Assembly: GCA_032718475.1 (NCBI GenBank)
Contig: JAUCBJ010001058.1
Coordinates: 1 to 35,961 of the forward strand
Source: Nemertoderma westbladi
Lineage: Eukaryota > Animalia > Xenacoelomorpha
Reading direction: 5' to 3'
DNA: 35,961 nt
Below the pieces are notes generated by a model, which was not told where the DNA came from, did no database searches, and worked only from the letters and a program-made list of their open reading frames with translations. This document shows positions 218 to 35,697 of this stretch, one piece after another (position 1 is the first letter of the stretch; each line of letters begins with the position of its first letter). Position numbers and translations under genes: made by a program.

Positions 218-3200
218 AAGGGTATAGATCGGTGGAGAGACGCTCATACCTGGTAAAGTATGTGGGTATAGATCGGTGGAGAGACGCTCATACCTGGTAA
301 AGTATGAGGGTATAGATCGGTGGAGAGACGCTCATACCTGGTAAAGTATGAGGGTATAGATCGGTGGAGAGACCCTCATACCTGGTTCTGTATGAGGGTA
401 TAGATCGGTGGAGAGACGCTCATACCTGGTAAAGTATGAGGGTATAGATCGGTGGAGAGACGCTCATACCTGGTAAAGTATGAGGGTATAGATCGGTGGA
501 GAGACGCTCATACCTGGTTCTGTATGAGGGTATAGATCGGTGGAGAGACGCTCATACCTGGTAAAGTATGAGGGTATAGATCGGTGGAGAGACGCTCATA
601 CCTGGTTCTGTATGAGGGTATAGATCGGTGGAGAGACGCTCATACCTGGTAAAGTATGAGGGTATAGATCGGTGGAGAGACGCTCATACCTGGTAAAGTA
701 TGAGGGTATAGATCGATGGAGAGACGCTCATACCTGGTTCTGTATGAGGGTATAGATCGGTGGAGAGACGCTCATACCTGGTAAAGTATGAGGGTATAGA
801 TCGGTGGAGAGACGCTCATACCTGGTAAAGTATGAGGGTATAGATCGGTGGAGAGACGCTCATACCTGGTAAAGTATGAGGGTATAGATCGGTGGAGAGA
901 CCCTCATACCTGGTTCTGTATGAGGGTATAGATCGGTGGAGAGACGCTCATACCTGGTTCTGTATGAGGGTATAGATCGGTGGAGAGACGCTCATACCTG
1001 GTAAAGTATGAGGGTATAGATCGGTGGAGAGACGCTCATACCTGGTACTGTATGAGGGTATAGATCGGTGGAGAGACGCTCATACCTGGTAAAGTATGAG
1101 GGTATAGATCGGTGGAGAGACGCTCATACCTGGTAAAGTATGAGGGTATAGATCGGTGGAGAGACGCTCATACCTGGTAAAGTATGAGGGTATAGATCGG
1201 TGGAGAGACCCTCATACCTGGTTCTGTATGAGGGTATAGATCGGTGGAGAGACGCTCATACCTGGTTCTGTATGAGGGTATAGATCGGTGGAGAGACGCT
1301 CATACCTGGTAAAGTATGAGGGTATAGATCGGTGGAGAGACGCTCATACCTGGTACTGTATGAGGGTATAGATCGGTGGAGAGACGCTCATACCTGGTAA
1401 AGTATGAGGGTATAGATCGGTGGAGAGACGCTCATACCTGGTTCTGTATGAGGGTATAGATCGGTGGAGAGACGCTCATACCTGGTTCTGTATGAGGGTA
1501 TAGATCGGTGGAGAGACACTCATACCTGGTAAAGTATGAGGGTATAGATCGGTGGAGAGACGCTCATACCTGGTAAAGTATGAGGGTATAGATCGGTGGA
1601 GAGACGCTCATACCTGGTTCTGTATGAGGGTATAGATCGGTGGAGAGACGCTCATACCTGGTAAAGTATGAGGGTATAGATCGGTGGAGAGACGCTCATA
1701 CCTGGTAAAGTATGAGGGTATAGATCGGTGGAGAGACGCTCATACCTGGTAAAGTATGAGGGTATAGATCGGTGGAGAGACGCTCATACCTGGTTCTGTA
1801 TGAGGGTATAGATCGGTGGAGAGACGCTCATACCTGGTAAAGTATGAGGGTATAGATCGGTGGAGAGACGCTCATACCTGGTTCTGTATGAGGGTATAGA
1901 TCGGTGGAGAGACGCTCATACCTGGTAAAGTATGAGGGTATAGATCGGTGGAGAGACGCTCATACCTGGTAAAGTATGAGGGTATAGATCGGTGGAGAGA
2001 CGCTCATACCTGGTTCTGTATGAGGGTATAGATCGGTGGAGAGACGCTCATACCTGGTAAAGTATGAGGGTATAGATCGGTGGAGAGACGCTCATACCTG
2101 GTTCTGTATGAGGGTATAGATCGGTGGAGAGACGCTCATACCTGGTAAAGTATGAGGGTATAGATCGGTGGAGAGACGCTCATACCTGGTTCTGTATGAG
2201 GGTATAGATCGGTGGAGAGACGCTCATACCTGGTTCTGTATGAGGGTATAGATCGGTGGAGAGACGCTCATACCTGGTTCTGTATTAGGGTATAGATCGG
2301 TGGAGAGACGCTCATACCTGGTAAAGTATGAGGGTATAGATCGGTGGAGAGACGCTCATACCTGGTTCTGTATGAGGGTATAGATCGGTGGAGAGACGCT
2401 CATACCTGGTAAAGTATGAGGGTATAGATCGGTGGAGAGACGCTCATACCTGGTAAAGTATGAGGGTATAGATCGGTGGAGAGACCCTCATACCTGGTTC
2501 TGTATGAGGGTATAGATCGGTGGAGAGACGCTCTTACCTGGTTCTGTATGAGGGTATAGATCGGTGGAGAGACGCTCATACCTGGTAAAGTATGAGGGTA
2601 TAGATCGGTGGAGAGACGCTCATACCTGGTAAAGTATGAGGGTATAGATCGGTGGAGAGACCCTCATACCTGGTTCTGTATGAGGGTATAGATCGGTGGA
2701 GAGACGCTCTTACCTGGTTCTGTATGAGGGTATAGATCGGTGGAGAGACGCTCATACCTGGTTCTGTATGAGGGTATAGATCGGTGGAGAGACGCTCATA
2801 CCTGGTTCTGTATGAGGGTATAGATCGGTGGAGAGACGCTCATACCTGGTAAAGTATGAGGGTATAGATCGGTGGAGAGACCCTCATACCTGGTTCTGTA
2901 TGAGGGTATAGATCGGTGGAGAGACGCTCTTACCTGGTTCTGTATGAGGGTATAGATCGGTGGAGAGACGCTCATACCTGGTAAAGTATGAGGGTATAGA
3001 TCGGTGGAGAGACGCTCATACCTGGTTCTGTATGAGGGTATAGATCGGTGGAGAGACGCTCATACCTGGTAAAGTATGAGGGTATAGATCGGTGGAGAGA
3101 CGCTCATACCTGGTTCTGTATGAGGGTATAGATCGGTGGAGAGACGCTCATACCTGGTTCTGTATGAGGGTATAGATCGGTGGAGAGACGCTCATACCTG

Positions 3201-6200
3201 GTTCTGTATTAGGGTATAGATCGGTGGAGAGACGCTCATACCTGGTAAAGTATGAGGGTATAGATCGGTCGAGAGACGCTCATACCTGGTAAAGTATGAT
3301 GGTATAGATCGGTGGAGAGACGCTCATACCTAGTAAAGTATGAGGGTATAGATCGGTGGAGAGACGCTCATAGCTGGTAAAGTATGAGGGTATAGATCGG
3401 CGGAGAGACGCTCATACCTGGTAAAGTATGAGGGTATAGATCGGTGGAGAGACGCTCATACCTGGTTCTGTATGAGGGTATAGATCGGTGGAGAGACGCT
3501 CATACCTGGTAAAGTATGAGGGTATAGATCGGTGGAGAGACGCTCATACCTGGTAAAGTATGAGGGTATAGATCGGTGGAGAGACGCTCATACCTGGTTC
3601 TGTATGAGGGTATAGATCGGTGGAGAGACGCTCATACCTGGTTCTGTATGAGGGTATAGATCGGTGGAGAGACGCTCATACCTGGTAAAGTATGAGGGTA
3701 TAGATCGGTGGAGAGACGCTCATACCTGGTAAAGTATGAGGGTATAGATCGGTGGAGAGACGCTCATACCTGGTAAAGTATGAGGGTATAGATCGGTGGA
3801 GAGACGCTCATACCTGGTAAAGTATGAGGGTATAGATCGGTGGAGAGACGCTCATACCTGGTTCTGTATGAGGGTATAGATCGGTGGAGAGACGCTCATA
3901 CCTGGTAAAGTATGAGGGTATAGATCGGTGGAGAGACGCTCATACCTGGTAAAGTATGAGGGTATAGATCGGTGGAGAGACGCTCATACCTGGTTCTGTA
4001 TGAGGGTATAGATCGGTGGAGAGACGCTCATACCTGGTTCTGTATGAGGGTATAGATCGGTGGAGAGACGCTCATACCTGGTAAAGTATGAGGGTATAGA
4101 TCGGTGGAGAGACGCTCATACCTGGTAAAGTATGAGGGTATAGATCGGTGGAGAGACCCTCATACCTGGTTCTGTATGAGGGTATAGATCGGTGGAGAGA
4201 CGCTCATACCTGGTTCTGTATGAGGGTATAGATCGGTGGAGAGACGCTCATACCTGGTAAAGTATGAGGGTATAGATCGGTGGAGAGACGCTCATACCTG
4301 GTTCTGTATGAGGGTATAGATCGGTGGAGAGACGCTCATACCTGGTAAAGTATGAGGGTATAGATCGGTGGAGAGACGCTCATACCTGGTTCTGTATGAG
4401 GGTATAGATCGGTGGAGAGACGCTCATACCTGGTTCTGTATGAGGGTATAGATCGGTGGAGAGACGCTCATACCTGGTAAAGTATGAGGGTATAGATCGG
4501 TGGAGAGACGCTCATACCTGGTTCTGTATGAGGGTATAGATCGGTGGAGAGACGCTCATACCTGGTAAAGTATGAGGGTATAGATCGGTGGAGAGACGCT
4601 CATACCTGGTTCTGTATGAGGGTATAGATCAGTGGAGAGATGCTCATACCTGGTTCTGTATGAGGGTATAGATCGGTGGAGAGATGCTCATACCTGGTTC
4701 TGTATGAGGGTATAGATCGGTGGAGAGACGCTCATACCTGGTAAAGTATGAGGGTATAGATCGGTGGAGAGACGCTCATACCTGGTTCTGTATGAGGGTA
4801 TAGATCAGTGGAGAGATGCTCATACCTGGTTCTGTATGAGGGTATAGATCGGTGGAGAGATGCTCATACCTGGTTCTGTATGAGGGTATAGATCGGTGGA
4901 GAGACGCTCATACCTGGTTCTGTATGAGGGTATAGATGGGTGGAGAGACGCTCATACCTGGTAAAGTATGAGGGTATAGATCGGTGGAGAGACGCTCATA
5001 CCTGATTCTGTATGAGGGTATAGATCGGTGGAGAGACGCTCATACCTGGTTCTGTATGAGGGTATAGATCGGTGGAGAGACGCTCATACCTGGTAAAGTA
5101 TGAGGGTATAGATCGGTGGAAAGACACTCATACCTGGTTCTGTATGAGGGTATAGATCGGTGGAGAGACGCTCATAGCTGGTAAAGTATGAGGGTATAGA
5201 TCGGTGGAGAGACGCTCATACCTGGTTCTGTATGAGGGTATAGATCGGTGGAGAGACGCTCATACCTGGTTCTGTATGAGGGTATAGATTGGTGGAGAGA
5301 CGCTCATAGCTGGTAAAGTATGGGGGTATAGATCGGTGGAGAGACGCTCATAGCTGGTAAAGTATGAGGGTATAGATCGGTGGAGAGACGCTCATACCTG
5401 GTTCTGTATGAGGGTATAGATCGGTGGAAAGACACTCATACCTGGTAAAGTATGAGGGTATAGATCGGTGGAGAGACGCTCATACCTGGTTCTGTATGAG
5501 GGTATAGATCGGTGGAGAGAACGCTCATACCTGGTAAAGTATGAGGGTATAGATTGGTGGAGAGACGCTCATAGCTGGTAAAGTATGAGGGTATAGATCG
5601 GTGGAGAGACGCTCATAGCTGGTAAAGTATGAGGGTATAGATCGGTGGAGAGACGCTCATACCTGGTAAAGTATGAGGGTATAGATCGGTGGAGAGACGC
5701 TCATACCTGGTTCTGTATGAGGGTATAGATCGGTGGAGAGACGCTCATACCTGGTTCTGTATGAGGGTATAGATCGGTGGAGAGACGCTCATACCTGGTT
5801 CTGTATGAGGGTATAGATCGGTGGAGAGACGCTCATACCTGGTTCTGTATGAGGGTATAGATCGGTGGAGAGACGCTCATACCTGGTTCTGTATGAGGGT
5901 ATAGATCGGTGGAGAGACGCTCATACCTGGTTCTGTATGAGGGTATAGATCGGTGGAGAGACGCTCATACCTGGTTCTGTATGAGGGTATAGATCGGTGG
6001 AGAGACGCTCATACCTGGTTCTGTATGAGGGTATAGATCGGTGGAGAGACGCTCATACCTGGTTCTGTATGAGGGTATAGATCGGTGGAGAGAACGCTCA
6101 TACCTGGTAAAGTATGAGGGTATAGATCGGTGGAGAGACGCTCATACCTGGTTCTGTATGAGGGTATAGATCGGTGGAGAGACGCTCATACCTGGTTCTG

Positions 6201-8244
6201 TATGAGGGTATAGATCGGTGGAGAGACGCTCATACCTGGTTCTGTATGAGGGTATAGATCGGTGGAGAGACGCTCATACCTGGTAAAGTATGAGGGTATA
6301 GATCGGTGGAGAGACGCTCATACCTGGTTCTGTATGAGGGTATAGATCGGTGGAGAGACGCTCATACCTGGTAAAGTATGAGGGTATAGATCGGTGGAGA
6401 GACGCTCATACCTGGTAAAGTATGATGGTATAGATCGGTGGAGAGACGCTCATACCTGGTTCTGTATGAGGGTATAGATCGGTGGAGAGACGCTCATACC
6501 TGGTTCTGTATGAGGGTATAGATCGGTGGAGAGACGCTCATACCTGGTAAAGTATGAGGGTATAGATCGGTGGAGAGACGCTCATACCTGGTAAAGTATG
6601 AGGGTATAGATCGGTGGAGAGACGCTCATACCTGGTAAAGTATGATGGTATAGATCGGTGGAGAGACGCTCATACCTGGTTCTGTATGAGGGTATAGATC
6701 GGTGGAGAGACGCTCATACCTGGTTCTGTATGAGGGTATAGATCGGTGGAGAGACGCTCATACCTGGTAAAGTATGAGGGTATAGATCGGTGGAGAGACG
6801 CTCATACCTGGTAAAGTATGAGGGTATAGATCGGTGGAGAGACGCTCATACCTGGTAAAGTATGAGGGTATAGATCGGTGGAGAGACGCTCATACCTGGT
6901 AAAGTATGAGGGTATAGATCGGTGGAGAGACGCTCATACCTGGTTCTGTATGAGGGTATAGATCGGTGGAGAGACGCTCATACCTGGTTCTGTATGAGGG
7001 TATAGATCGGTGGAGAGACGCTCATACCTGGTTCTGTATGAGGGTATAGATCGGTGGAGAGACGCTCATACCTGGTTCTGTATGAGGGTATAGATCGGTG
7101 GAGAGACGCTCATACCTGGTTCTGTATGAGGGTATAGATCGGTGGAGAGACGCTCATACCTGGTTCTGTATGAGGGTATAGATCGGTGGAGAGAACGCTC
7201 ATACCTGGTAAAGTATGAGGGTATAGATCGGTGGAGAGACGCTCATACCTGGTTCTGTATGAGGGTATAGATCGGTGGAGAGACGCTCATACCTGGTTCT
7301 GTATGAGGGTATAGATCGGTGGAGAGACGCTCATACCTGGTTCTGTATGAGGGTATAGATCGGTGGAGAGAACGCTCATACCTGGTAAAGTATGAGGGTA
7401 TAGATCGGTGGAGAGACGCTCATACCTGGTTCTGTATGAGGGTATAGATCGGTGGAGAGACGCTCATACCTGGTAAAGTATGAGGGTATAGATCGGTGGA
7501 GAGACGCTCATACCTGGTAAAGTATGAGGGTATAGATCGGTGGAGAGACGCTCATACCTGGTTCAGTATGAGGGTATAGATCGGTGGAGAGACGCTCATA
7601 CCTGGTTCTGTATGAGGGTATAGATCGGTGGAGAGACGCTCATACCTGGTAAAGTATGAGGGTATAGATCGGTGGAGAGACGCTCATACCTGGTAAAGTA
7701 TGAGGGTATAGATCGGTGGAGAGACGCTCATACCTGGTAAAGTATGAGGGTATAGATCGGTGGAGAGACACTCATACCTGGTTCTGTATGAGGGTATAGA
7801 TCGGTGGAGAGACGCTCATACCTGGTTCTGTATGAGGGTATAGATCGGTGGAGAGACGCTCATACCTGGTAAGGTATGAGGGTATAGATCGGTGGAGAGA
7901 CGCTCATACCTGGTAAAGTATGAGGGTATAGATCGGTGGAGAGACGCTCATACCTGGTTCTGTATGAGGGTATAGATCGGTGGAGAGACACTCATACCTG
8001 GTAAAGTATGAGGGTATAGATCGGTGGAGAGACGCTCATACCTGGTTCTGTATGAGGGTATAGATCGGTGGAGAGACGCTCATACCTGGTTCTGTATGAG
8101 GGTATAGATCGGTGGAGAGACGCTCATACCTGGTAAAGTATGAGGGTATAGATCGGTGGAGAGACGCTCATACCTGGTAAAGTATGAGGGTATAGATCGG
8201 TGGAGAGACGCTCATACCTGGTTCTGTATCAGGGTATAGATCGG
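218..8244. repeat. 44-bp minisatellite, distal block (about 182 units)
   Basis: Unit tatgagggtatagatcggtggagagacgctcatacctggt(tct/aaa)g, very homogeneous. The minus strand reads CCAG|GTATGAG, the exon 7 donor. Confidence 0.98.
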
Positions 8245-9377
8245 CTGTTATCTTTGTTGACTTCTTCAAGGCCTTTGATTCAGTTTCTCGCTCACGTATG
8301 TTCAGCATACTTTCATTATATGGGATTCCTGATGAAATTATTGCAGACTGTTGACGGTGACACAGAACCATTTGAAGTGTTATGGGGCGTCCTCCAAGGA
8401 GACACACTTGCACCATTCTTGTTCATTATTGTGGTTGACTACGTTCTAGGCATGTCCTTAGATCATCATAATGATGATGGGGTAATGATAACTCCACCTA
8501 CTGGCTCCAGAAGTCGAGGAAATCCTGCCAAGTACCTAACTGATCTAGACTTTGCTGATGACTTAGGAGTACTCTCAGAATCATTAGAGGGAGCCCAACG
8601 GCTCCTCAGCTCATTAGAACATGCTGCTTCTAGTGTTGGTCTTTTTATTAACTCCAGAAAGACCAAAATTATGACAGTTAACTTTGAAAGTCCTCAGCAA
8701 GTCTCTGATCGGATGAGCATAAGCTCAAAGGATGGTATGCTTGAGCATGTGGACGACTTCTGTTACCTGGGATCATGGATCCGGAAGTCAGGTGAGGACC
8801 TTCGAATACGTAAGGGAAAGGCATGGGCAGCCTTGAATAGGCTTTCCAGGATTTGGAAGTCACCGAGAATTAATCGGAAACTTAAGGTCCGATTATTTAG
8901 AGCAGCAGTAGTTCCAGTACTCCTCTACGGGAGTCCATGCTGGGCTCTAACTGCTGAGGACACCAAATCTCTGGATGGCACATTCACAAGAATGCTACGC
9001 CGGGTTCATTGTGTCAAGTACAATGCACACATCTCCAACCAGACGCTATATAACATTGGAGGTGTCTCATTGGTTCCCCCAAGCTTGACACTAGAACAAA
9101 ATCGCCTCCGCTTTGCAGGACATTGCTTTCGCCGTGAGGACCAGCCAGTGCATAATCTTGTACTTTGGCAGCCTCATGGAGTGAATAAGCATGGTGGACA
9201 GCCCATGACTTTCTTGAGACGCATCTTAAAGGACACAGGCCTTAAAGATGCGGATGATCTAGCAAATGTCATGGGTGATAGGGAGTTGTGGCGGTGCAAT
9301 TTTGTTGACAAGCCGGCACAGCATTCCTAAAAATGCAGCTGCAATGCAGCATGCCGATCCTAGTAGTAGTAGTAGTA
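8245..9377 (+). mobile_element. 5'-truncated non-LTR retrotransposon, RTE-like, reverse transcriptase C-terminal part
   Basis: Motifs FVDFFKAFDSV (different frame, from about 8245), GVLQGDTLAPFLF, LDFADDL and FCYLGS. Stop at 9330, short 3' UTR, (TAG)n tail 9361-9377. Flanking direct repeat gtatagatcgg at 8234-8244 and 9378-9388. Confidence 0.93.
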
Positions 9378-10209
9378 GTATAGATCGGTGGAGAGAACGC
9401 TCATACCTGGTTCTGTATGAGGGTATAGATCGGTGGAGAGAACGCTCATACCTGGTAAAGTATGAGGGTATAGATCGGTGGAGAGACGCTCATACCTGGT
9501 AAAGTATGAGGGTATAGATCGGTGGAGAGACGCTCATACCTGGTAAAGTATGAGGGTATAGATCGGTGGAGAGACGCTCATACCTGGTTCTGTATGAGGG
9601 TATAGATCGGTGGAGAGACACTCATAGCTGGTAAAGTATGAGGGTATAGATCGGTGGAGAGACGCTCATACCTGGTAAAGTATGAGGGTATAGATCGGTG
9701 GAGAGACGCTCATACCTGGTAAAGTATGAGGGTATAGATCGGTGGAGAGACGCTCATACCTGGTTCTGTATGAGGGTATAGATCGGTGGAGAGAACGCTC
9801 ATACCTGGTAAAGTATGAGGGTATAGATCGGTGGAGAGACGCTCATACCTGGTAAAGTATGAGGGTATAGATCGGTGGAGAGACGCTCATACCTGGTAAA
9901 GTATGAGGGTATAGATCGGTGGAGAGACGCTCATACCTGGTAAAGTATGAGGGTATAGATCGGTGGAGAGACGCTCATACCTGGTTCTGTATGAGGGTAT
10001 AGATCGGTGCAGAGACGCTCATACCTGGTAAAGTATGAGGTTATAGATCGGTGGAGAGACGCTCATACCTGGTAAAGTATGAGGGTATAGATCGGTGGAG
10101 AGACGCTCATAGCTGGTAAAGTATGAGGGTATAGATCGGTGGAGAGACGCTAATACCTGGTAAAGTATGAGGGTATAGATCGGTGGAGAGACGCTCATAC
10201 CTGGTTCTG
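9378..10209. repeat. 44-bp minisatellite, proximal block (about 19 units), overlapping the exon 7 donor
   Basis: Same unit. The terminal copy runs into the last 9 exon bases (CAGAACCAG). Confidence 0.97.
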
Positions 10210-10408
10210 CTAAGTAAATTGAATTAGGAATATTCATATTGGTTTTCCACATTGGAGGTTCATTTTCATCAAGTATTAGGATATGAAATTCTTGGTATGA
10301 ATCTTCTATGTGAGACAAATCGGGCGTATATGTTGCTCGCACAGTAGCGTTGATCTGTTTGCCAGACAGGCGTTCGTAATCGAGTGAGTTCGAATCCTTC
10401 ACATCAAT
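10201..10408 (-). CDS. Cadherin-repeat gene, exon 7 (IDVKDSNSLDYERLSGKQINATVRATYTPDLSHIEDSYQEFHILILDENEPPMWKTNMNIPNSIYLAEPG)
   Basis: Acceptor tttgcag| and donor CCAG|gtatga. 208 bp, phase 0 to 1. LDYE and DENEPP cadherin motifs. No further exon was found down to position 1. Confidence 0.88.
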
Positions 10409-10499: not shown

Positions 10500-11876
10500 C
10501 ATAAAATGAACGCAGTATGTAACTGTGTTCCCAGATGCCCATAATATGAACGCAGTATGTAACTGTGTTCCCAGATGCCCATAATATGAACGCAGTATGT
10601 AACTGTGTTCCCAGATGCCCATAATATGAACGCAGTATGTAACTGTGTTCCCAGATGCCCATAATATGAACGCAGTATGTAACTGTGTTCCCAGATGCCC
10701 ATATTATGAACGCAGTATGTAACTGTGTTCCCAGATGCCCATAATATGAACGCAGTATGTAACTGTGTTCCCAGATGCCCATAATATGAACGCAGTATGT
10801 AACTGTGTTCCCAGATGCCCATAATATGAACGCAGTATGTAACTGTGTTCCCAGATGCCCATAATATGAACGCAGTATGTAACTGTGTTCCCAGATGCCC
10901 ATAATATGAACGCAGTATGTAACTGTGTTCCCAGATGCCCATAATATGAACGCAGTATGTAACTGTGTTCCCAGATGCCCATAATATGAACGCAGTATGT
11001 AACTGTGTTCCCAGATGCCCATATTATGAACGCAGTATGTAACTGTGTTCCCAGATGCCCATAATATGAACGCAGTATGTAACTGTGTTCCCAGATGCCC
11101 ATAATATGAACGCAGTATGTAACTGTGTTCCCAGATGCCCATAATATGAACGCAGTATGTAACTGTGTTCCCAGATGCCCATAATATGAACGCAGTATGT
11201 AACTGTGTTCCCAGATGCCCATAACATGAACGCAGTATGTAACTGTGTTGTTCCCAGATGCCCATAATATGAACGCAGTATGTAACTGTGTTCCCAGATG
11301 CCCATAATATGAACGCAGTATGTAACTGTGTTCCCAGATGCCCATAATATGAACGCAGTATGTAACTGTGTTCCCAGATGCCCATAACATGAACGCAGTA
11401 TGTAACTGTGTTGTTCCCAGATGCCCATAATATGAACGCAGTATGTAACTGTGTTCCCAGATGCCCATAATATGAACGCAGTATGTAACTGTGTTCCCAG
11501 ATGCCCATAATATGAACGCAGTATGTAACTGTGTTCCCAGATGCCCATAATATGAACGCAGTATGTAACTGTGTTCCCAGATGCCCATAATATGAACGCA
11601 GTATGTAACTGTGTTCCCAGATGCCCATAATATGAACGCAGTATGTAACTGTGTTCCCAGATGCCCATAATATGAACGCAGTATGTAACTGTGTTCCCAG
11701 ATGCCCATAATATGAACGCAGTATGTAACTGTGTTCCCAGATGCCCATAATATGAACGCAGTATGTAACTGTGTTCCCAGATGCCCATAACATGAACGCA
11801 GTATGCAACTGTGTTCCCAGATGCCCATAACATGAACGCAGTATGTAACTGTGTTGTTCCCAGATGCCCATAATAT
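10500..11876. repeat. 40-bp minisatellite (about 34 units, three 43-bp variants)
   Basis: Unit ataatatgaacgcagtatgtaactgtgttcccagatgccc, nearly invariant. Fills most of intron 6. Confidence 0.98.
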
Positions 11877-12056: not shown

Positions 12057-12277
12057 TCTGAAGTCCATACCGGAAAACAAATCTTTATCCTTTACTTCGA
12101 GTGATTGAGACGCCAAGTGATCCCATATAATTGTAGCATCCGTTAGTTTCATCCCAGCCAGGGGAATGTATTTATATACAGCCGAACGCGGTACAACAAC
12201 AGTTCCAGCGGGTGCGTTCTCTCCAACACCGAATCTTCCCCCAATGATTGCAATGTGGTTCGGTTGCTCTTTTGTTG
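12057..12277 (-). CDS. Cadherin-repeat gene, exon 6 (ATKEQPNHIAIIGGRFGVGENAPAGTVVV...LEVKDKDLFSGMDFR)
   Basis: Phase-compatible acceptor actttcag| and donor AGA|gtaagt. 221 bp, phase 1 to 0. VxENxPxGTxV and VKDKD motifs. Confidence 0.8.
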
Positions 12278-12404: not shown

Positions 12405-12572
12405 CAATCATTAACGTAATCTTTTGCACGTCAAACATGGGTGTTGGAATAGCTGAGTCGGCTACTTTCACATCAATTTTAAATGCTTGACCCAATAATG
12501 GACTTGATCCGTCTACCGCTTGCTTCAACGTAATAGCACCAGTAGTTGGATCAATTGCGAATAGAGTTAGGG
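12405..12572 (-). CDS. Cadherin-repeat gene, exon 5 (ALTLFAIDPTTGAITLKQAVDGSSPLLGQAFKIDVKVADSAIPTPMFDVQKITLMI)
   Basis: Acceptor ttttatcttcag| and donor ATTG|gtgagt. 168 bp, phase 1 to 1. FxIDxxTGxIxL and VxVxD are cadherin motifs. Translated by hand. Confidence 0.9.
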
Positions 12573-18536: not shown

Positions 18537-18671
18537 TACTGTATGTCAAAGGGCTGTCTTGCGGATCATCTCCATCCACGGCAAAGATGTTTCCTCCAAC
18601 GCCATTTGATATGGTTACAGGATCGCCGATAGCAGCCCCAATGCTAATAATACCCCCTAAGTATTCTGGAT
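18519..18671 (-). CDS. Cadherin-repeat gene, exon 4 (DPEYLGGIISIGAAIGDPVTISNGVGGNIFAVDGDDPQDSPLTYSITGDAQ)
   Basis: Acceptor ttgcag| and donor CAGG|gtaaga. 153 bp, phase 1 to 1. AxDxD and LTYSI are cadherin motifs. Confidence 0.87.
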
Positions 18672-19108: not shown

Positions 19109-19134
19109 CCACTTTACGGATTGTTTTATTATAC

Positions 19135-19244
19135 CTGTTGCTGGATTTAATGTAAATACGGGTGGCTCGTCTGATATCCCAGTAACCTGAACTATGATTG
19201 GGAAGGTTACCGTATTTCCAGCTACACCGTTGTTGTCTGTTACA
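19135..19244 (-). CDS. Cadherin-repeat gene, exon 3 (VTDNNGVAGNTVTFPIIVQVTGISDEPPVFTLNPATD)
   Basis: Acceptor ttttttcttttag| and donor CAG|gtataa. 110 bp, phase 2 to 1. Has VxDxxG and a degenerate linker (ISDEPPVF). Not in the ORF track; translated by hand. Confidence 0.87.
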
Positions 19245-22594: not shown

Positions 22595-23654
22595 TCAGTC
22601 AGTCAGTCAGTCAGTCAGTCAGTCAGTCAGTCAGTCAGTCAGTCAGTCAGTCAGTCAGTCAGTCAGTCAGTCAGTCAGTCAGTCAGTCAGTCAGTCAGTC
22701 AGTCAGTCAGTCAGTCAGTCAGTCAGTCAGTCAGTCAGTCAGTCAGTCAGTCAGTCAGTCAGTCAGTCAGTCAGTCAGTCAGTCAGTCAGTCAGTCAGTC
22801 AGTCAGTCAGTCAGTCAGTCAGTCAGTCAGTCAGTCAGTCAGTCAGTCAGTCAGTCAGTCAGTCAGTCAGTCAGTCAGTCAGTCAGTCAGTCAGTCAGTC
22901 AGTCAGTCAGTCAGTCAGTCAGTCAGTCAGTCAGTCAGTCAGTCAGTCAGTCAGTCAGTCAGTCAGTCAGTCAGTCAGTCAGTCAGTCAGTCAGTCAGTC
23001 AGTCAGTCAGTCAGTCAGTCAGTCAGTCAGTCAGTCAGTCAGTCAGTCAGTCAGTCAGTCAGTCAGTCAGTCAGTCAGTCAGTCAGTCAGTCAGTCAGTC
23101 AGTCAGTCAGTCAGTCAGTCAGTCAGTCAGTCAGTCAGTCAGTCAGTCAGTCAGTCAGTCAGTCAGTCAGTCAGTCAGTCAGTCAGTCAGTCAGTCAGTC
23201 AGTCAGTCAGTCAGTCAGTCAGTCAGTCAGTCAGTCAGTCAGTCAGTCAGTCAGTCAGTCAGTCAGTCAGTCAGTCAGTCAGTCAGTCAGTCAGTCAGTC
23301 AGTCAGTCAGTCAGTCAGTCAGTCAGTCAGTCAGTCAGTCAGTCAGTCAGTCAGTCAGTCAGTCAGTCAGTCAGTCAGTCAGTCAGTCAGTCAGTCAGTC
23401 AGTCAGTCAGTCAGTCAGTCAGTCAGTCAGTCAGTCAGTCAGTCAGTCAGTCAGTCAGTCAGTCAGTCAGTCAGTCAGTCAGTCAGTCAGTCAGTCAGTC
23501 AGTCAGTCAGTCAGTCAGTCAGTCAGTCAGTCAGTCAGTCAGTCAGTCAGTCAGTCAGTCAGTCAGTCAGTCAGTCAGTCAGTCAGTCAGTCAGTCAGTC
23601 AGTCAGTCAGTCAGTCAGTCAGTCAGTCAGTCAGTCAGTCAGTCAGTCAGTCAG
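22595..23654. repeat. (TCAG)n microsatellite, 1060 bp, 265 copies
   Basis: Uninterrupted tetranucleotide run as read. Confidence 0.99.
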
Positions 23655-24120
23655 CTACTATTATCTGCTACCCGAAGGTAGGGGTGGGCGCTACTCCTAT
23701 CTGCTACCCGAAGGTAGGGGTGGGCGCTACTCCTATCTGCTACCTGAGGGTAGGGGTGGGCGCTACTCCTATCTGCTACCCGAAGGTAGGGGTGGGTGCT
23801 ACTCCTATCTGATACCCGAAGGTAGGGGTAGGCGCTACTCCTATCTGCTACCCGAAGGTAGGGGTGGGCGTTACTCCTATCTGCTACCCGAAGGTAGGGC
23901 TGGGCGTTACTCCTATCTGCTACCCGAAGGTAGGGGTGGGCGTTACTCCTATCTGCTACCCGAAGGTAGGGGTGGTCGATACTCCTATCTGCTACCCGAA
24001 AGTAGGGGTGGTCGATACTCCTATCTGCTACCCGAAGGTAGGGGTGGGCGCTACTCTTATCTGCTACCCGAAGGTAGGGGTGGGTGCTACTCCTACCTGA
24101 TACCCGGGCGCTACTCCTAT
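23655..24120. repeat. 36-bp minisatellite (about 12.5 units)
   Basis: Unit ctactcctatctgctacccgaaggtaggggtgggcg. Abuts the TCAG run on one side and the SINE body on the other. Confidence 0.96.
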
Positions 24121-24265: not shown

Positions 24266-24299
24266 TTTTAAAATATTTATATGATTTTACAACACTTAC

Positions 24300-24489
24300 C
24301 TTATCGGAAAACTGTATGTTTTTGTTCCTTCATAGTCCAAACTGTTAGCATTAGCATATAGTTTACCGTTGTTTATGGTAAATGGCACACCAGGTGGCAA
24401 CGAGTCCCATGCTAATGTATTCCATGGGCTGGTTGTATCTTCATCAGTAACAAATGTTGTAAAGTCAAATATGGCCTTAGTAGCATCGC
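24300..24489 (-). CDS. Cadherin-repeat gene, exon 2 (GDATKAIFDFTTFVTDEDTTSPWNTLAWDSLPPGVPFTINNGKLYANANSLDYEGTKTYSFPIS)
   Basis: Acceptor ttttgtag| and donor AAG|gtaagt. 190 bp, phase 1 to 2. Carries the DxD (TDED) and LDYE cadherin motifs. Confidence 0.9.
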
Positions 24490-24781: not shown

Positions 24782-27700
24782 TGGTTTTAGTACCTTGAAC
24801 ATTGGTGGATCACACTTACCTGTTCTAGTACCTTAAACATTGGTGGATCACACTTACCTGGTTCTACTACCTTGAACATTGGTGGATCACACTTACCTGG
24901 TTCTACTACCTTGAACATTGGTGGATCACACTTACCTGGTTCTACTACCTTGAACATTGGTGGATAACACTTACCTGGTTTATAGTACCTTGAACATTGG
25001 TGGATCACACTTACCTGGTTGTAGTACCTTGAACATTGGTGGATCACACTTACATTTTTCTACCACCTTGAACATTGGTGGATCACACTTACCTGGTTTA
25101 TAGTACCTTGAACATTGGTGGATAACACTTACCTGGTTTATAGTACCTTGAACATTGGTGGATAACACTTACCTGGTTTATAGTACCTTGAACATTGGTG
25201 GATCACACTTACCTGGTTGTAGTACCTTGAACATTGGTGGATCACACTTACATTTTTCTACTACCTTGAACATTGGTGGATAACACTTACCTGGTTCTAG
25301 TACCTTGATCATTGGTGGATCTCACTTACCTGGTTCTAGTACCTTGATCATTGGTGGATCTCACTTACCTGGTTCTAGTACCTTGAACATTGGTGGATCT
25401 CACTTACCTGGTTCTAGTACCTTGAACATTGGTGGATCTCACTTACCTGGTTCTACTACCTTGAACATTGGTGGATCACACTTACCTGGTTCTAGTACCT
25501 TGAACATCGGTGGATCACACTTACCTGGTTCTAGTACCTTGAACATTGATGGATCACACTTACCTGGTTCTACTACCTTGAACATTGGTGGATCACACTT
25601 ACCTGGTTCTAGTACCTTGAACATTGGTGGATGACACTTACCTGGTTCTAGTACCTTGAACATTGGTGGATCACACTTACATTGTTCTAGTACCTTGAAC
25701 ATTGGTGGATCACACTTACCTGGTTGTAGTACCTTGAACATTGATGGATCACACTTACCTGGTTCTAGTACCTTGAACATTGGTGGATCACACTTACATT
25801 TTTCTACTACCTTGAACATTGGTGGATAACACTTACCTGGTTCTAGTACCTTGAACATTGGTGGATCACACTTACATTGTTCTAGTACCTTGAACATTGG
25901 TGGATGACACTTACCTGGTTCTATTACCTTAAACATTGGTGGATCACACTTACCTGGTTTATAGTACCTTGAACATTGGTGGATCACACTTACCTGGTTC
26001 TACTACCTTGAACATTGGTGGATCACACTTACCTGGTTCTACTACCTTGAACATTGGTGGATCACACTTACCTGGTTCTAGTACCTTGAACATTGGTGGA
26101 TGACACTTACCTGGTTCTAGTACCTTGAACATTGGTGGATCTCACTTACCTGGTTCTAGTACCTTGATCATTGGTGGATCTCACTTACCTGGTTCTAGTA
26201 CCTTGAACATTGGTGGATCTCACTTACCTGGTTCTAGTACCTTGAACATTGATGGATCACACTTACCTGGTTCTACTACCTTGAACATTGGTGGATCACA
26301 CTTACCTGGTTCTAGTACCTTGAACATTGGTGGATGACACTTACCTGGTTCTAGTACCTTAAACATTGGTGGATCACACTTACCTGGTTCTACTACCTTG
26401 AACATTGGTGGATCACACTTACCTGGTTCTACTACCTTGAACATTGGTGGATCACACTTACCTGGTTCTACTACCTTGAACATTGGTGGATAACACTTAC
26501 CTGGTTTATAGTACCTTGAACATTGGTGGATCACACTTACCTGGTTGTAGTACCTTGAACATTGGTGGATCACACTTACATTTTTCTTCTACCTTGAACA
26601 TTGATGGATCACACTTACCTGGTTCTAGTACCTTGAACATTGGTGGATCACACTTACCTGGTTCTACTACCTTGAACATTGGTGGATAACACTTACCTGG
26701 TTTATAGTACCTTGAACATTGGTGGATCACACTTACCTGGTTGTAGTACCTTGAACATTGGTGGATCACACTTACATTTTTCTACTACCTTGAACATTGG
26801 TGGATCACACTTACCTGGTTCTAGTACCTTGAACATTGGTGGATGACACTTACCTGGTTCTAGTACCTTGAACATTGGTGGATAACACTTACCTGGTTCT
26901 AGTACCTTGATCATTGGTGGATCTCACTTACCTGGTTCTAGTACCTTGATCATTGGTGGATCTCACTTACCTGGTTCTAGTACCTTGAACATTGGTGGAT
27001 CTCACTTACCTGGTTCTAGTACCTTGATCATTGGTGGATCTCACTTACCTGGTTCTAGTACCTTGATCATTGGTGGATCTCACTTACCTGGTTCTAGTAC
27101 CTTGAATATTGGTGGATCTCACTTACCTGGTTCTAGTACCTTGAACATTGATGGATCACACTTACCTGGTTCTACTACCTTGAACATTGGTGGATCACAC
27201 TTACCTGGTTCTAGTACCTTGAACATTGGTGGATGACACTTACCTGGTTCTAGTACCTTGAACATTGGTGGATCACACTTACCTGGTTCTATTACCTTGA
27301 TCATTGGTGGATCTCACTTACCTGGTTCTAGTACCTTGAACATTGGTGGATCACACTTACCTGGTTGTAGTACCTTGAACATTGGTGGATCACACTTACA
27401 TTTTTCTACTACCTTGAACATTGGTGGATAACACTTACCTGGTTCTAGTACCTTGATCATTGGTGGATCTCACTTACCTGGTTCTAGTACCTTGATCATT
27501 GGTGGATCTCACTTACCTGGTTCTAGTACCTTGAACATTGGTGGATCTCACTTACCTGGTTCTAGTACCTTGAACATTGATGGATCACACTTACCTGGTT
27601 CTACTACCTTGAACATTGGTGGATCACACTTACCTGGTTCTAGTACCTTGAACATTGGTGGATGACACTTACCTGGTTCTAGTACCTTGAACATTGGTGG

Positions 27701-30700
27701 ATCACACTTACATTGTTCTAGTACCTTGAACATTGATGGATGACACTTACCTGGTTCTAGTACCTTGAACATCGGTGGATGACACTTACCTGGTTCTAGT
27801 ACCTTGTACATTGGTGGATCACACTTACCTGGTTCTAGTACCTTGAACATTGGTGGATCTCACTTACCTGGTTCTAGTACCTTGAACATCGGTGGATGAC
27901 ACTTACCTGGTTCTATTACATTGAACATTGGTGGATCTCACTTACCTGGTTCTAGTACCTTGAACATTGGTGGATCACACTTACCTGGTTCTAGTACCTT
28001 GAACATTGGTGGATCTCACTTACCTCGTTCTAGTACCTTGAACATCGGTGGATGACACTTACCTGGTTCTAGTACCTTGAACATTGGTGGATCTCACTTA
28101 CCTGGTTCTAGTACCTTGAACATTGGTGGATCACACTTACATTGTTCTAGTACCTTGAACATTGGTGGATGACACTTACCTGGTTCTAGTACCTTGAACA
28201 TTGGTGGATCACACTTACATTGTTCTAGTACCTTGAACATTGGTGGATGACACTTACCTGGTTCTAGTACCTTGAACATTGGTGGATCTCACTTACCTGG
28301 TTGTAGTACCTTGAACATTGGTGGATCACACTTACCTGGTTCTACTACCTTGAACATTGGTGGATCACACTTACCTGGTTCTAGTACCTTGAACATTGGT
28401 GGATGACACTTACCTGGTTCTAGTACCTTGAACATTGGTGGATCACACTTACCTGGTTCTAGTACCTTGAGCATTGGTGGATCACACTTACCTGGTTCTA
28501 GTACCTTAAAGATTGGTGGATCACACTTACCTGGTTCTAGTACCTTAAACATTGATGGATCACACTTACCTGGTTCTATTACATTGAACATTGGTGGATC
28601 ACACTTACCTGGTTCTAGTACCTTGAACATTGGTGGATCACACTTACCTGGTTCTAGTACCTTAAACATTGGTGGATCACACTTACCTGGTTCTAGTACC
28701 TTGAACATTGATGGATCACACTTACCTGGTTCTAGTACTTTGAACATTGATGGATCACACTTACCTGGATCTAGTACCCTGAACATTGATGGATCACACT
28801 TACCTGGTTCTACTACCTTGAACATTGGTGGATCACACTTACCTGGTTCTAGTACCTTGAACATTGGTGGATCACACTTACCTGGTTCTACTACCTTGAA
28901 CATTGGTGGATCACACTTACCTGGTTCTAGTACTTTGAACATTGATGGATCACACTTACCTGGATCTAGTACCCTGAACATTGATGGATCACACTTACCT
29001 GGTTCTACTACCTTGAACATTGGTGGATCACACTTACCTGGTTCTAGTACCTTGAACATTGGTGGATCACACTTACCTGGTTCTAGTACCTTAAACATTG
29101 GTGGATCACACTTACCTGGTTCTACTACCTTGAACATTGGTGGATCACACTTACCTGGTTCTAGTACTTTGAACATTGATGGATCACACTTACCTGGATC
29201 TAGTACCCTGAACATTGATGGATCACACTTACCTGGTTCTATTACCTTGAACATTGGTGGATCACACTTACCTGGTTCTAGTACCTTGAACATTGGTGGA
29301 TCACACTTACCTGGTTCTAGTACCTTGAACATCGGTGGATCACACTTACCTGGTTCTAGTACCTTGAACATTGCTGGATCACACTTACCTGGTTCTACTA
29401 CCTTGAACATTGATGGATCACACTTACCTGGTTCTACTACCTTGAACATTGGTGGATCACACTTACCTGGTTCTAGTACCTTGAACATCGGTGGATCACA
29501 CTTACCTGGTTCTAGTACCTTGAACATTGGTGGATCATACTTACCTGGTTCTAGTACCTTAAATATTGGTGGATCACACTTACCTGGTTCTATTACCTTG
29601 AACATTGGTGGATCACACTTACTTGGTTCTACTACCTTGAACATTGGTGGATAACACTTACCTGGTTTATAGTACCTTGAACATTGGTGGATCACACTTA
29701 CCTGGTTGTAGTACCTTGAACATTGGTGGATCACACTTACATTTTTCTACTACCTTGAACATTGGTGGATCACACTTACCTGGTTCTAGTACCTTGAACA
29801 TTGGTGGATGACACTTACCTGGTTCTAGTACCTTGAACATTGGTGGATAACACTTACCTGGTTCTAGTACCTTGATCATTGGTGGATCTCACTTACCTGG
29901 TTCTAGTACCTTGATCATTGGTGGATCTCACTTACCTGGTTCTAGTACCTTGAACATTGGTGGATCTCACTTACCTGGTTCTAGTACCTTGATCATTGGT
30001 GGATCTCACTTACCTGGTTCTAGTACCTTGATCATTGGTGGATCTCACTTACCTGGTTCTAGTACCTTGAATATTGGTGGATCTCACTTACCTGGTTCTA
30101 GTACCTTGAACATTGATGGATCACACTTACCTGGTTCTACTACCTTGAACATTGGTGGATCACACTTACCTGGTTCTAGTACCTTGAACATTGGTGGATG
30201 ACACTTACCTGGTTCTAGTACCTTGAACATTGGTGGATCACACTTACCTGGTTCTATTACCTTGATCATTGGTGGATCTCACTTACCTGGTTCTAGTACC
30301 TTGAACATTGGTGGATCACACTTACCTGGTTGTAGTACCTTGAACATTGGTGGATCACACTTACATTTTTCTACTACCTTGAACATTGGTGGATAACACT
30401 TACCTGGTTCTAGTACCTTGATCATTGGTGGATCTCACTTACCTGGTTCTAGTACCTTGATCATTGGTGGATCTCACTTACCTGGTTCTAGTACCTTGAA
30501 CATTGGTGGATCTCACTTACCTGGTTCTAGTACCTTGAACATTGATGGATCACACTTACCTGGTTCTACTACCTTGAACATTGGTGGATCACACTTACCT
30601 GGTTCTAGTACCTTGAACATTGGTGGATGACACTTACCTGGTTCTAGTACCTTGAACATTGGTGGATCACACTTACATTGTTCTAGTACCTTGAACATTG

Positions 30701-33700
30701 ATGGATGACACTTACCTGGTTCTAGTACCTTGAACATCGGTGGATGACACTTACCTGGTTCTAGTACCTTGTACATTGGTGGATCACACTTACCTGGTTC
30801 TAGTACCTTGAACATTGGTGGATCTCACTTACCTGGTTCTAGTACCTTGAACATCGGTGGATGACACTTACCTGGTTCTAGTACCTTGAACATTGGTGGA
30901 TCACACTTACCTGGTTCTAGTACCTTGAACATTGGTGGATCTCACTTACCTCGTTCTAGTACCTTGAACATCGGTGGATGACACTTACCTGGTTCTAGTA
31001 CCTTGAACATTGGTGGATCTCACTTACCTGGTTCTAGTACCTTGAACATTGGTGGATCACACTTACATTGTTCTAGTACCTTGAACATTGGTGGATGACA
31101 CTTACCTGGTTCTAGTACCTTGAACATTGGTGGATCACACTTACATTGTTCTAGTACCTTGAACATTGGTGGATGACACTTACCTGGTTCTAGTACCTTG
31201 AACATTGGTGGATCTCACTTACCTGGTTGTAGTACCTTGAAAATTGGTGGATCACACTTACCTGGTTCTACTACCTTGAACATTGGTGGATCACACTTAC
31301 CTGGTTCTAGTACCTTGAACATTGGTGGATGACACTTACCTGGTTCTAGTACCTTGAACATTGGTGGATCACACTTACATGGTTCTAGTACCTTGAGCAT
31401 TGGTGGATCACACTTACCTGGTTCTAGTACCTTAAAGATTGGTGGATCACACTTACCTGGTTCTAGTACCTTAAACATTGATGGATCACACTTACCTGGT
31501 TCTATTACATTGAACATTGGTGGATCACACTTACCTGGTTCTAGTACCTTGAACATTGGTGGATCACACTTACCTGGTTCTACTACCTTGAACATTGGTG
31601 GATCACACTTACCTGGTTCTAGTACCTTGAACATCGGTGGATGACACTTACCTGGTTCTAGTACCTTGAACATTGGTGGATCTCACTTACCTGGTTCTAG
31701 TACCTTGAACATTGGTGGATCACACTTACATTGTTCTAGTACCTTGAACATTGGTGGATGACACTTACCTGGTTCTAGTACCTTGAACATTGGTGGATCA
31801 CACTTACCTGGTTCTATTACATTGAACATTGGTGGATGACACTTACCTGGTTCTAGTACCTTGAACATCGGTGGATGACACTTACCTGGTTCTAGTACCT
31901 TGAACATTGGTGGATCACACTTACCTGGTTCTAGTACCTTGAACATTGGTGGATCACACTTACCTGGTTCTAGTACCTTAAACATTGGTGGATCACACTT
32001 ACCTGGTTCTACTACCTTGAACATTGGTGGATCACACTTACCTGGTTCTAGTACTTTGAACATTGATGGATCACACTTACCTGGATCTAGTACCCTGAAC
32101 ATTGATGGATCACACTTACCTGGTTCTATTACCTTGAACATTGGTGGATCACACTTACCTGGTTCTAGTACCTTGAACATTGGTGGATCACACTTACCTG
32201 GTTCTAGTACCTTGAACATCGGTGGATCACACTTACCTGGTTCTAGTACCTTGAACATTGCTGGATCACACTTACCTGGTTCTACTACCTTGAACATTGA
32301 TGGATCACACTTACCTGGTTCTACTACCTTGAACATTGGTGGATCACACTTACCTGGTTCTAGTACCTTGAACATCGGTGGATCACACTTACCTGGTTCT
32401 AGTACCTTGAACATTGGTGGATCATACTTACCTGGTTCTAGTACCTTAAATATTGGTGGATCACACTTACCTGGTTCTATTACCTTGAACATTGGTGGAT
32501 CACACTTACTTGGTTCTACTACCTTGAACATTGGTGGATAACACTTACCTGGTTTATAGTACCTTGAACATTGGTGGATCACACTTACCTGGTTGTAGTA
32601 CCTTGAACATTGGTGGATCACACTTACATTTTTCTACTACCTTGAACATTGGTGGATCACACTTACCTGGTTCTAGTACCTTGAACATTGGTGGATGACA
32701 CTTACCTGGTTCTAGTACCTTGAACATTGGTGGATAACACTTACCTGGTTCTAGTACCTTGATCATTGGTGGATCTCACTTACCTGGTTCTAGTACCTTG
32801 ATCATTGGTGGATCTCACTTACCTGGTTCTAGTACCTTGAACATTGGTGGATCTCACTTACCTGGTTCTAGTACCTTGATCATTGGTGGATCTCACTTAC
32901 CTGGTTCTAGTACCTTGATCATTGGTGGATCTCACTTACCTGGTTCTAGTACCTTGAATATTGGTGGATCTCACTTACCTGGTTCTAGTACCTTGAACAT
33001 TGATGGATCACACTTACCTGGTTCTACTACCTTGAACATTGGTGGATCACACTTACCTGGTTCTAGTACCTTGAACATTGGTGGATGACACTTACCTGGT
33101 TCTAGTACCTTGAACATTGGTGGATCACACTTACCTGGTTCTATTACCTTGATCATTGGTGGATCTCACTTACCTGGTTCTAGTACCTTGAACATTGGTG
33201 GATCACACTTACCTGGTTGTAGTACCTTGAACATTGGTGGATCACACTTACATTTTTCTACTACCTTGAACATTGGTGGATAACACTTACCTGGTTCTAG
33301 TACCTTGATCATTGGTGGATCTCACTTACCTGGTTCTAGTACCTTGATCATTGGTGGATCTCACTTACCTGGTTCTAGTACCTTGAACATTGGTGGATCT
33401 CACTTACCTGGTTCTAGTACCTTGAACATTGATGGATCACACTTACCTGGTTCTACTACCTTGAACATTGGTGGATCACACTTACCTGGTTCTAGTACCT
33501 TGAACATTGGTGGATGACACTTACCTGGTTCTAGTACCTTGAACATTGGTGGATCACACTTACATTGTTCTAGTACCTTGAACATTGATGGATGACACTT
33601 ACCTGGTTCTAGTACCTTGAACATCGGTGGATGACACTTACCTGGTTCTAGTACCTTGAACATTGGTGGATCACACTTACCTGGTTCTAGTACCTTGAAC

Positions 33701-35326
33701 ATCGGTGGATGACACTTACCTGGTTCTAGTACCTTGAACATTGGTGGATCACACTTACCTGGTTCTAGTACCTTGAACATTGGTGGATCTCACTTACCTG
33801 GTTCTAGTACCTTGAACATCGGTGGATGACACTTACCTGGTTCTAGTACCTTGAACATTGGTGGATCACACTTACCTGGTTCTAGTACCTTGAACATTGG
33901 TGGATCTCACTTACCTCGTTCTAGTACCTTGAACATCGGTGGATGACACTTACCTGGTTCTAGTACCTTGAACATTGGTGGATCTCACTTACCTGGTTCT
34001 AGTACCTTGAACATTGGTGGATCACACTTACATTGTTCTAGTACCTTGAACATTGGTGGATGACACTTACCTGGTTCTAGTACCTTGAACATTGGTGGAT
34101 CACACTTACATTGTTCTAGTACCTTGAACATTGGTGGATGACACTTACCTGGTTCTAGTACCTTGAACATTGGTGGATCTCACTTACCTGGTTGTAGTAC
34201 CTTGAACATTGGTGGATCACACTTACCTGGTTCTACTACCTTGAACATTGGTGGATCACACTTACCTGGTTCTAGTACCTTGAACATTGGTGGATGACAC
34301 TTACCTGGTTCTAGTACCTTGAACATTGGTGGATCACACTTACATGGTTCTAGTACCTTGAGCATTGGTGGATCACACTTACCTGGTTCTAGTACCTTAA
34401 AGATTGGTGGATCACACTTACCTGGTTCTAGTACCTTAAACATTGATGGATCACACTTACCTGGTTCTATTACATTGAACATTGGTGGATCACACTTACC
34501 TGGTTCTAGTACCTTGAACATTGGTGGATCACACTTACCTGGTTCTAGTACCTTGAACATTGGTGGATCACACTTACCTGGTTCTAGTACCTTGAACATT
34601 GGTGGATCACACTTACCTGGTTCTAGTACCTTGAACATTGGTGGATGACACTTACCTGGTTCTAGTACCTTGAACATCGGTGGATGACACTTACCTGGTT
34701 CTAGTACCTTGAACATTGGTGGATCACACTTACCTGGTTCTAGTACCTTGAACATTGGTGGATCACACTTACCTGGTTCTAGTACCTTAAACATTGGTGG
34801 ATCACACTTACCTGGTTCTACTACCTTGAACATTGGTGGATCACACTTACCTGGTTCTAGTACTTTGAACATTGATGGATCACACTTACCTGGATCTAGT
34901 ACCCTGAACATTGATGGATCACACTTACCTGGTTCTATTACCTTGAACATTGGTGGATCACACTTACCTGGTTCTAGTACCTTGAACATTGGTGGATCAC
35001 ACTTACCTGGTTCTAGTACCTTGAACATCGGTGGATCACACTTACCTGGTTCTAGTACCTTGAACATTGCTGGATCACACTTACCTGGTTCTACTACCTT
35101 GAACATTGATGGATCACACTTACCTGGTTCTACTACCTTGAACATTGGTGGATCACACTTACCTGGTTCTAGTACCTTGAACATCGGTGGATCACACTTA
35201 CCTGGTTCTAGTACCTTGAACATTGGTGGATCATACTTACCTGGTTCTAGTACCTTAAATATTGGTGGATCACACTTACCTGGTTCTATTACCTTGAACA
35301 TTGGTGGATCACACTTACTTGGTTCT
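24782..35326. repeat. 39-bp minisatellite (about 270 units) with a 2.8-3.0 kb higher-order period
   Basis: Unit ggttctagtaccttgaacattggtggatcacacttacct. The minus strand carries AGAACCAG|GTAAGTG, identical to the exon 1 donor. Confidence 0.98.
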
Positions 35327-35697
35327 GGGACGTTGTGTGTTGCTAGAGTGGTTGGATCCCACTTACCTGGTTCTGGGACGTTGTGTGTTGCTAGATGTGG
35401 TTGGAACCCACTTACCTGGTTCTGGGACGTTGTGTGTTGCTAGAGTGGTTGGAACCCACTTACCTGGTTCTGGGACGTTGTGTGTTGCTAGAGTGGTTGA
35501 ACCCACTTACCTGGTTCTGGGACGTTGTGTGTTGCTAGAGTGGTTGGATCCCACTTACCTGGTTCTGGGACGTTGTGTGTTGCTAGAGTGGTTGGATCCC
35601 ACTTACCTGGTTCTGGGACGTTGTGTGTTGCTAGAGTGGTTGGATCCCACTTACCTGGTTCTGGACGTTGTTGTGTTGCTAGAGTGGTTGGATCCCA
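35327..35697. repeat. 48-bp minisatellite (about 8 units), overlapping the exon 1 donor
   Basis: Unit gggacgttgtgtgttgctagagtggttggatcccacttacctggttct, which is about 42 exon bases plus gtaagt on the minus strand. Confidence 0.96.

Follow-up and report, generated by a model that had tools for sequence, protein, structure and literature searches.

The window analysed here, which is the whole 35,961-nt stretch of Nemertoderma westbladi contig JAUCBJ010001058.1, carries part of a cadherin-repeat gene that lies on the minus strand and continues past both window ends. At three of its seven exons, the exon end and the splice donor are repeated in tandem for kilobases into the following intron. By analogy with the "mirages" of amphioxus and with human minisatellites placed at donors, these elements are probably three very large mirage minisatellites in a repeat-rich cadherin-like gene, that is, tolerated duplications in which the most upstream donor of each array is the one used. 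The arrays are:

35305..35697, minus strand: 48-bp array at exon 1; the unit has 43 exon and 5 intron bases, and donor copies 2-4 are in frame and stop-free
24782..35326, minus strand: 39-bp array at exon 1; about 270 units, a diverged relative of the 48-mer with invariant GTAAGT and a higher-order repeat of 74-76 units
12910..18536, minus strand: 66-bp (and 72-bp) array at exon 4; 84 donors, 18 exon and 48 intron bases per unit, and copies 2-14 in frame and stop-free
219..10209, minus strand: 44-bp array at exon 7; 201 donors, 9 exon, 30 intron and 5 junction bases per unit, and copy 4 in frame

Tandem Repeats Finder (TRF) placed the exon 1 array at 35697-24782 (48-bp and then 39-bp units), the exon 4 array at 18536-12910 (66-bp units and 72-bp variants) and the exon 7 array at 10205-219 (44-bp units). 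Together they cover about 25.4 kb, or 71% of the window, in head-to-tail units of 39-72 bp with 93-97% matches. An earlier note on this DNA had described arrays that start inside the exon and run into the intron only, and this was the case for all three, with 43, 18 and 9 exon bases per unit at exons 1, 4 and 7. Its estimates of roughly 280, 84 and 200 donor copies agreed with the counts of 277, 84 and 201, which include the authentic donor, so that each array holds between 83 and 276 extra copies. Most units were also said to keep the donor; indeed, the GT was retained in 554 of the 562 copies (277/277, 84/84 and 193/201), and the longer motif was found as GTAAGT in 277/277, GTAAGA in 81/84 and GTATGA in 189/201. 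None of the seven acceptors in the window was overlapped by an array, as the note had claimed, and the closest array end was 47 nt away. The three arrays contained 47, 41 and 33 distinct unit types, and signs of concerted evolution or turnover were observed, namely variants shared among units and the block repeat of 74-76 units. By four tested features (minisatellite-size tandem units, a terminal unit over a real boundary, a repeated splice signal and concerted turnover) the arrays clearly belong to the mirage, or boundary-spanning minisatellite, class, and the three loci are mutually independent.

The phenomenon itself is already known, and this locus is set apart by its size, by having three arrays within a single gene and by proximal copies that are frame-safe. 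The original paper on the Adh3 mirage is reportedly that of Canestro et al. 2002. In the amphioxus accounts, mirages, which are named for Adh3, the globin genes BflGb6 and BflGb9, troponin C and PGBD5, are described as tandem repeats over exon-intron boundaries of both types that apparently leave splicing undisturbed (PMC3087553), and concerted evolution and length instability are reported for them (PMC3087553, PMC3902484). The arrays of the window resemble them in that the repeats span the boundary, repeat the splice signal and evolve in concert, and the 10-72 bp units of Adh3 cover the range found here. In contrast, 84-277 copies per array are present here and 3-6 in BflGb6, and all three arrays are located at donors whereas mirages occur at both boundaries.

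A second precedent is provided by human VNTR loci (tandem repeats that vary in number) at donors, described in PMC1557585 for F7 IVS7 (37 bp x 5-9), IFI6/6-16 (25 pseudo-sites), CBS IVS13 (15-20), LMNB2 (100 bp x 10-15) and PDGF intron 4 (81 bp x 16-18). According to the same source, only the most upstream donor is used in F7, its mutation shifts use to the next one and competition is confined to perfect-consensus copies, while in IFI6 and CBS two proximal copies are also used (PMC1557585). As in these VNTRs, the first unit straddles the donor, the intronic pseudo-donors are identical and few exon bases are included (4 in F7, 9-43 here). The window differs from them in that copies are roughly ten times as numerous, a single gene bears three arrays, 247 of the exon 1 copies match the consensus perfectly, and the proximal copies are frame-safe or disabled. 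The earlier note had concluded that the spliceosome must choose one donor out of hundreds; by the human precedent this is likely not so, and only the first one to three copies would compete. The Rogers model, in which introns are gained by tandem duplication at AG/GT (the slash marks the exon-intron boundary), is discussed together with internal tandem repeats in human segmental duplications (PMC2812944, PMC3087553). It shares with the window the tandem AG/GT-bearing units at an exon edge, but the arrays here do not form the intron: in introns 1 and 4 they give way to 290-340 nt of unique intron sequence that ends in a normal acceptor. An intron gain of this type, with the array as the intron from the first GT to the last AG, was rejected, since unique sequence and T-rich acceptors follow the arrays.

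On the exon side, seven exons on the minus strand, separated by six GT-AG introns, give one joined frame of 399 codons without stops:

35655..35803, minus strand: exon 1, 149 nt, closing a cadherin repeat; its donor, CAG/GTAAGT, is in phase 1
24300..24489, minus strand: exon 2, 190 nt, donor without array; the following intron opens with an in-frame stop
19135..19244, minus strand: exon 3, 110 nt
18519..18671, minus strand: exon 4, 153 nt, donor AGG/GTAAGA; record 6 of the contigs of short-read run X1 bridges exon, donor and array
12405..12572, minus strand: exon 5, 168 nt, cadherin match
12057..12277, minus strand: exon 6, 221 nt
10201..10408, minus strand: exon 7, 208 nt, phase-1 donor CAG/GTATGA

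As judged from its predicted product, the host is a cadherin-repeat gene. A Pfam search matched one of the seven exons (exon 5 with PF00028, E 0.003, under the curated cut-off), and exon 5 also matched protocadherin 6vg1 (E 7.6e-6). Cadherin-23 was among the matches to the gene as well. The joined product was colinear with cadherin-repeat proteins over 300-390 residues at 22-30% identity (best E 5e-12), and the introns are placed at matching phase-1 positions of the cadherin repeats. The last 11 bases of exons 1 and 7 are the same, as both exons close matching cadherin repeats. None of 21 candidates qualified as an exon 7 orthologue among proteins of 122-2000 residues, and a search of cluster representatives gave 14 distant matches and no orthologue. 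With the arrays collapsed, the introns are mostly 120-390 nt long.

The arrays likely grew by ordinary minisatellite turnover, as indicated by interspersed unit variants, 44 consecutive identical units at a lag of 74 units, and the insertion of a long interspersed nuclear element (LINE) within an array. On the preferred reading, each array would have begun by a duplication through slippage or repair, at a short homology for the 66-mer, which is observed at its unit junction, or with a small inverted junction insert for the 44-mer. Unequal exchange would then have amplified the arrays, as the 2.9-kb block repeat of the 39-bp array suggests. Exon definition would select the first donor, as in human F7, and the later copies would be removed with the intron. 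In the last and weakest step, splicing would leak slightly into the one to three donors that follow, as it does in IFI6 and CBS, and this would keep these copies in frame or disabled.

At exon 1, the perfect CAG/GTAAGT was present in 247 of the 277 copies. The 39-mer aligned to the 48-mer in a fixed register (shuffle p 0.001), which points to one lineage, and the 39-bp array consisted largely of a 74-76-unit block in about 3.6 repeats. The block repeat reflects either a recent unequal exchange or an inflated assembly. From the sequence pattern, a single old duplication appears to have decayed and expanded, with fresher copies beside the exon. The outermost partial 39-bp unit (24781-24765) has decayed and ends without a donor, and the 277 inner donors are intact. 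When exon 1 (35680-35660) was compared with the 48-bp copies (35630-35610), two compensating 1-bp indels, 7 bases apart, were observed. The 48-bp copies and the 39-mer register fit the V-x-E cadherin motif better than exon 1 itself does; either the exon changed after the duplication, or there is a consensus error at this point. The 39-mer was rejected as the ancestral exon end, as a cadherin repeat would need a longer linker than it provides.

In the exon 7 array, the 5 added junction bases of the 44-mer complete the reverse complement of the first 7 bases of the donor, so that the junction has the look of a templated repair insert. Two 44-mer types of equal length, differing by a 3-base block, are mixed about half and half, and one of them extends the donor hairpin to 9 pairs. 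Within unit 19 of this array lies the following element:

8245..9377, plus strand: 5'-truncated LINE fragment (reverse transcriptase)

This 1.1-kb LINE is flanked by an 11-bp target-site duplication and has a trinucleotide-repeat tail; a similarity search gave 1069 matches, with a best identity of 54%. The two matches that carry a species name are animals, which, like the introns and the cadherin repeats, suggests an animal source. A LINE with a target-site duplication inside the array argues that the 44-bp array is not an invention of the assembler.

The copied AG before each GT could also act as an acceptor, in which case the intron would be removed stepwise by recursive splicing and the junction regenerated each time. 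The units of exons 1 and 7 do contain CAG/GT, and in roughly half the 44-mers 12 of the 17 upstream bases are pyrimidines, as at real acceptors. However, a T at position -5 was found in 7/7 real acceptors and in none of the array unit types, the counts in the 48-, 39- and 66-mers are 6-8 for pyrimidines and 1-4 for T, so that one 44-mer type alone is pyrimidine-rich, and the exon 4 unit has no AG/GT junction. Recursive splicing is therefore highly improbable.

We then considered the copies next to the exons. The first intact downstream donor was in frame and stop-free at all three arrays, and the frame-safe copies were copies 2-4 at exon 1, 2-14 at exon 4 and copy 4 at exon 7. The exon 7 unit length is not a multiple of three, and the frameshifting copies 2 and 3 both carry a single change relative to the unit consensus, in each case at a base critical for the donor: a +5 G>T in copy 2, found in 1/201 copies, which also removes the sole read-through stop, and a GT>CT in copy 3, found in 8/201 copies. 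The two changes are located at 10156 and 10112. Under a null model, three safe arrays would be expected with a probability of about 0.04 (the product of the per-donor fractions 0.34, 0.33 and 0.33), and the exon 7 arrangement with one of 1e-4 (unit permutation) or 0.005-0.02 (one change per unit). These figures hint at selection on leaky proximal donors. In the literature covered, which excludes subscription papers, we found neither a report of frame-safe proximal copies nor a genome-wide test of arrays at donors versus acceptors. A wider proposal, by which splicing itself shapes the arrays, with selection keeping leaky near copies in frame, or disabling them by single changes up to the next in-frame copy, and with hundreds of distal sense-strand U1 sites allowing a 5-10x longer growth than in other intronic repeats, is possible at best and rather doubtful. 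If it held, a duplicated donor would license its own expansion into a giant intron in this lineage.

The same copies might instead be functional alternative donors, the first ones adding inserts of 16, 22/24 or 44 residues to the cadherin linkers and thus producing length isoforms. Each of the three arrays offers such an in-frame donor, the exon 1 copies are of the perfect-consensus kind, which is the sole kind that competes in F7, and the exon 4 frame is open across 13 units. Nevertheless, only 4/277, 14/84 and 2/193 copies are frame-safe, which leaves hundreds of copies without such a role, the exon 4 insert would land within a cadherin domain, and unit lengths divisible by three have a chance of 0.11 on their own, so that length isoforms seem quite unlikely. 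The arrays were also rejected as coding exons, as the frames break after 4, 14 and 4 copies.

Several points weigh against tolerated duplications with first-donor use. The use of the first donor is borrowed here from mammalian experiments. Against the last step, the leak to proximal donors, the exon 7 frame test was post hoc and made on one haplotype, and the two units that are multiples of three (exons 1 and 4) alone have that null chance of 0.11. Donors 3 and 6 could also yield safe duplications, yet they carry none, and the units of F7 (37 bp) and LMNB2 (100 bp) are not multiples of three (PMC1557585). As regards tolerance itself, the seven arrays of the window include none longer than the three at donors (p 0.03, or 0.05 without the microsatellite), a length difference that plain tolerance does not predict. 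Finally, positions +1 to +6 form the only invariant 6-base window of the 39-mer (variable positions 0/6 versus 19/33, p 0.012), yet this is not so in the 66- and 44-mers. A general conservation of these positions was rejected, as it held in 1/3 arrays with a pooled p of 0.10.

A rival reading links the origin or growth of the arrays to the donor: either donors would seed duplications when the exon end breaks or folds into a hairpin, or arrays rich in sense-strand U1 sites would outgrow the others because U1 binding sustains transcription. At least three donor overlaps among the six minisatellite events had a p of 0.0014 under uniform placement, 0.0019 without exon interiors and 0.025 given the host introns, values that do not demonstrate a genome-wide bias, as it was for this very feature that a large-scale scan had singled out the window. 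The donor arrays measure 5.6-10.9 kb and the others 0.4-1.4 kb, and sites with at least 6 U1 matches number 43-287 in the former versus 0-2 in the latter. In addition, the 48-mer includes just 5 intron bases, GTAAGT is invariant in the 277 copies of exon 1 and the 44-mer junction insert is a donor reverse complement. On the other hand, arrays were found at 3/7 donors and 0/7 acceptors (p 0.10), 3/6 minisatellite events touch no splice site, and amphioxus mirages are described at both boundaries (PMC3087553). A single AATAAA is present across all the arrays, which leaves little for U1 to suppress, and the donor invariance is not general. Hairpins as a shared trigger were rejected, since they are 7-8 bp long at the array-free donors 5 and 6, as at donor 4, with fold z values of -1.9 to +0.9. 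A donor-linked origin or growth is thus unlikely. Of the two interpretations offered by the earlier note, a filter that tolerates only duplications leaving the first donor usable fits the array anatomy, what was found for F7 and the frame safety of the proximal copies. Intron expansion through a donor-anchored mechanism is not supported.

The arrays at the donors stand among other repeats, and six of the seven introns bear arrays. Four further arrays (40 bp, 86/46 bp, 36 bp and TCAG), none of them at a splice site, were found in introns 2, 3 and 6:

22595..24106: 36-bp minisatellite and (TCAG)265 microsatellite, intronic and away from splice sites (controls)
18719..19109: 86-bp (46+40) array, starting 25 nt past donor 3 and stopping 47 nt short of acceptor 4
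10500..11876: 40-bp array, intronic and away from splice sites (control)

With so many array-bearing introns, and with introns that are short once collapsed, an overlap with a donor is not rare (P of at least 3/6 = 0.025, given the host introns). The (TCAG)265 tract (22595-23654) is 1060 bp long with a 100% match and adjoins the 36-bp array. Other repeats were seen on the minus strand. In intron 2, a second LINE fragment (21544-20220) has a broken reverse-transcriptase frame (PF00078, E 8.6e-22). In intron 1, a tRNA-like element with the look of A and B boxes (24692-24610) has, where the anticodon arm would be, a core that resembles a hammerhead ribozyme, with a closing stem, CUGAUGA, a 5-bp stem II, GAAA and a stem III that is palindromic and very short. 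Its centroid fold (z -0.8) contained stem II and the closing stem, Rfam gave no matches in 18500-24900 and ARAGORN made no tRNA calls. Presumably, this element resembles the Schistosoma SM-alpha short interspersed nuclear element (SINE) and the minimal hammerheads of Penelope type. Another tRNA-like, SINE-looking stretch (24265-24190) lies 35 nt past donor 2.

Support from reads was examined for the 66-bp array. It was present in the short-read contigs of runs X1, X2 and X3, which represent two samples and two studies; one of the two samples may be the window's own source. A single X1 contig spans exon 4, its donor and the first unit, and the distal flank of the array was identical in the three runs. 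The X2 contigs showed 14 differences from the window in 1.1 kb of flank, which indicates another haplotype, and their depth was 470-1220 in the array versus 25-37 on the flanks, which would fit tens of copies, although copy number cannot be read from depth. Short-read contigs cannot give allele lengths, and with them no contig joint showing a donor choice at exon 4 was found. Blanks are uninformative for X4, X5 and X6 at 11880-12960 and for X5 at 18440-18716, and so, as a result of the contig filter, are the gaps at 18630-18716 in all four runs and at 18540-18579 in X2, X3 and X5. Within this array, a T at -1 in 43/84 copies makes these weaker than the authentic donor. Two unusual joints were observed in the contigs: in X2, exon 6 runs from its exact end straight into the first base of exon 3 (30 letters per side, below the 31-letter bridging rule), and in X1-X3 a part of exon 3 is joined out of frame to the middle of exon 4. 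They belong to the following feature:

window parts 12057-12264, 19244 and 18583-18646, in contigs of X1-X3: scrambled, intron-less second copy

This copy may have arisen as a retrocopy of a back-spliced RNA and decayed since. Two of the modelled splice sites are in agreement with it, and it stops short of the donor arrays.

These data also bear on an assembly artefact, in which the arrays would be real and their lengths inflated, above all that of the 39-bp array, or single-base features at the window edge would be consensus errors. The 44 identical units (1.7 kb) at lag 74 in the 39-bp array speak for such an artefact, and so do the 1-bp indels at 35680-35400, which are private to units 4 and 6 of the 48-bp array or set exon 1 apart from its copies. 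This is very unlikely to explain the locus, given the 66-bp array in three short-read runs with its high X2 depth, the 47, 41 and 33 distinct unit types and the LINE with its target-site duplication.

Three tolerated mirage minisatellites therefore remain the favoured explanation, and the value of the locus is that of a test case, with three independent arrays and up to 247 perfect U1 sites to be set against four array-free donors and four non-donor arrays. It suits a test of whether the first donor wins beyond the 5-25 copies of the human loci and outside mammals. The locus also shows how introns of about 300 nt can reach 6-11 kb without transposons. If the frame-safe pattern of the proximal copies holds across haplotypes and genes, it would reveal selection on rare mis-splicing into intronic repeats.

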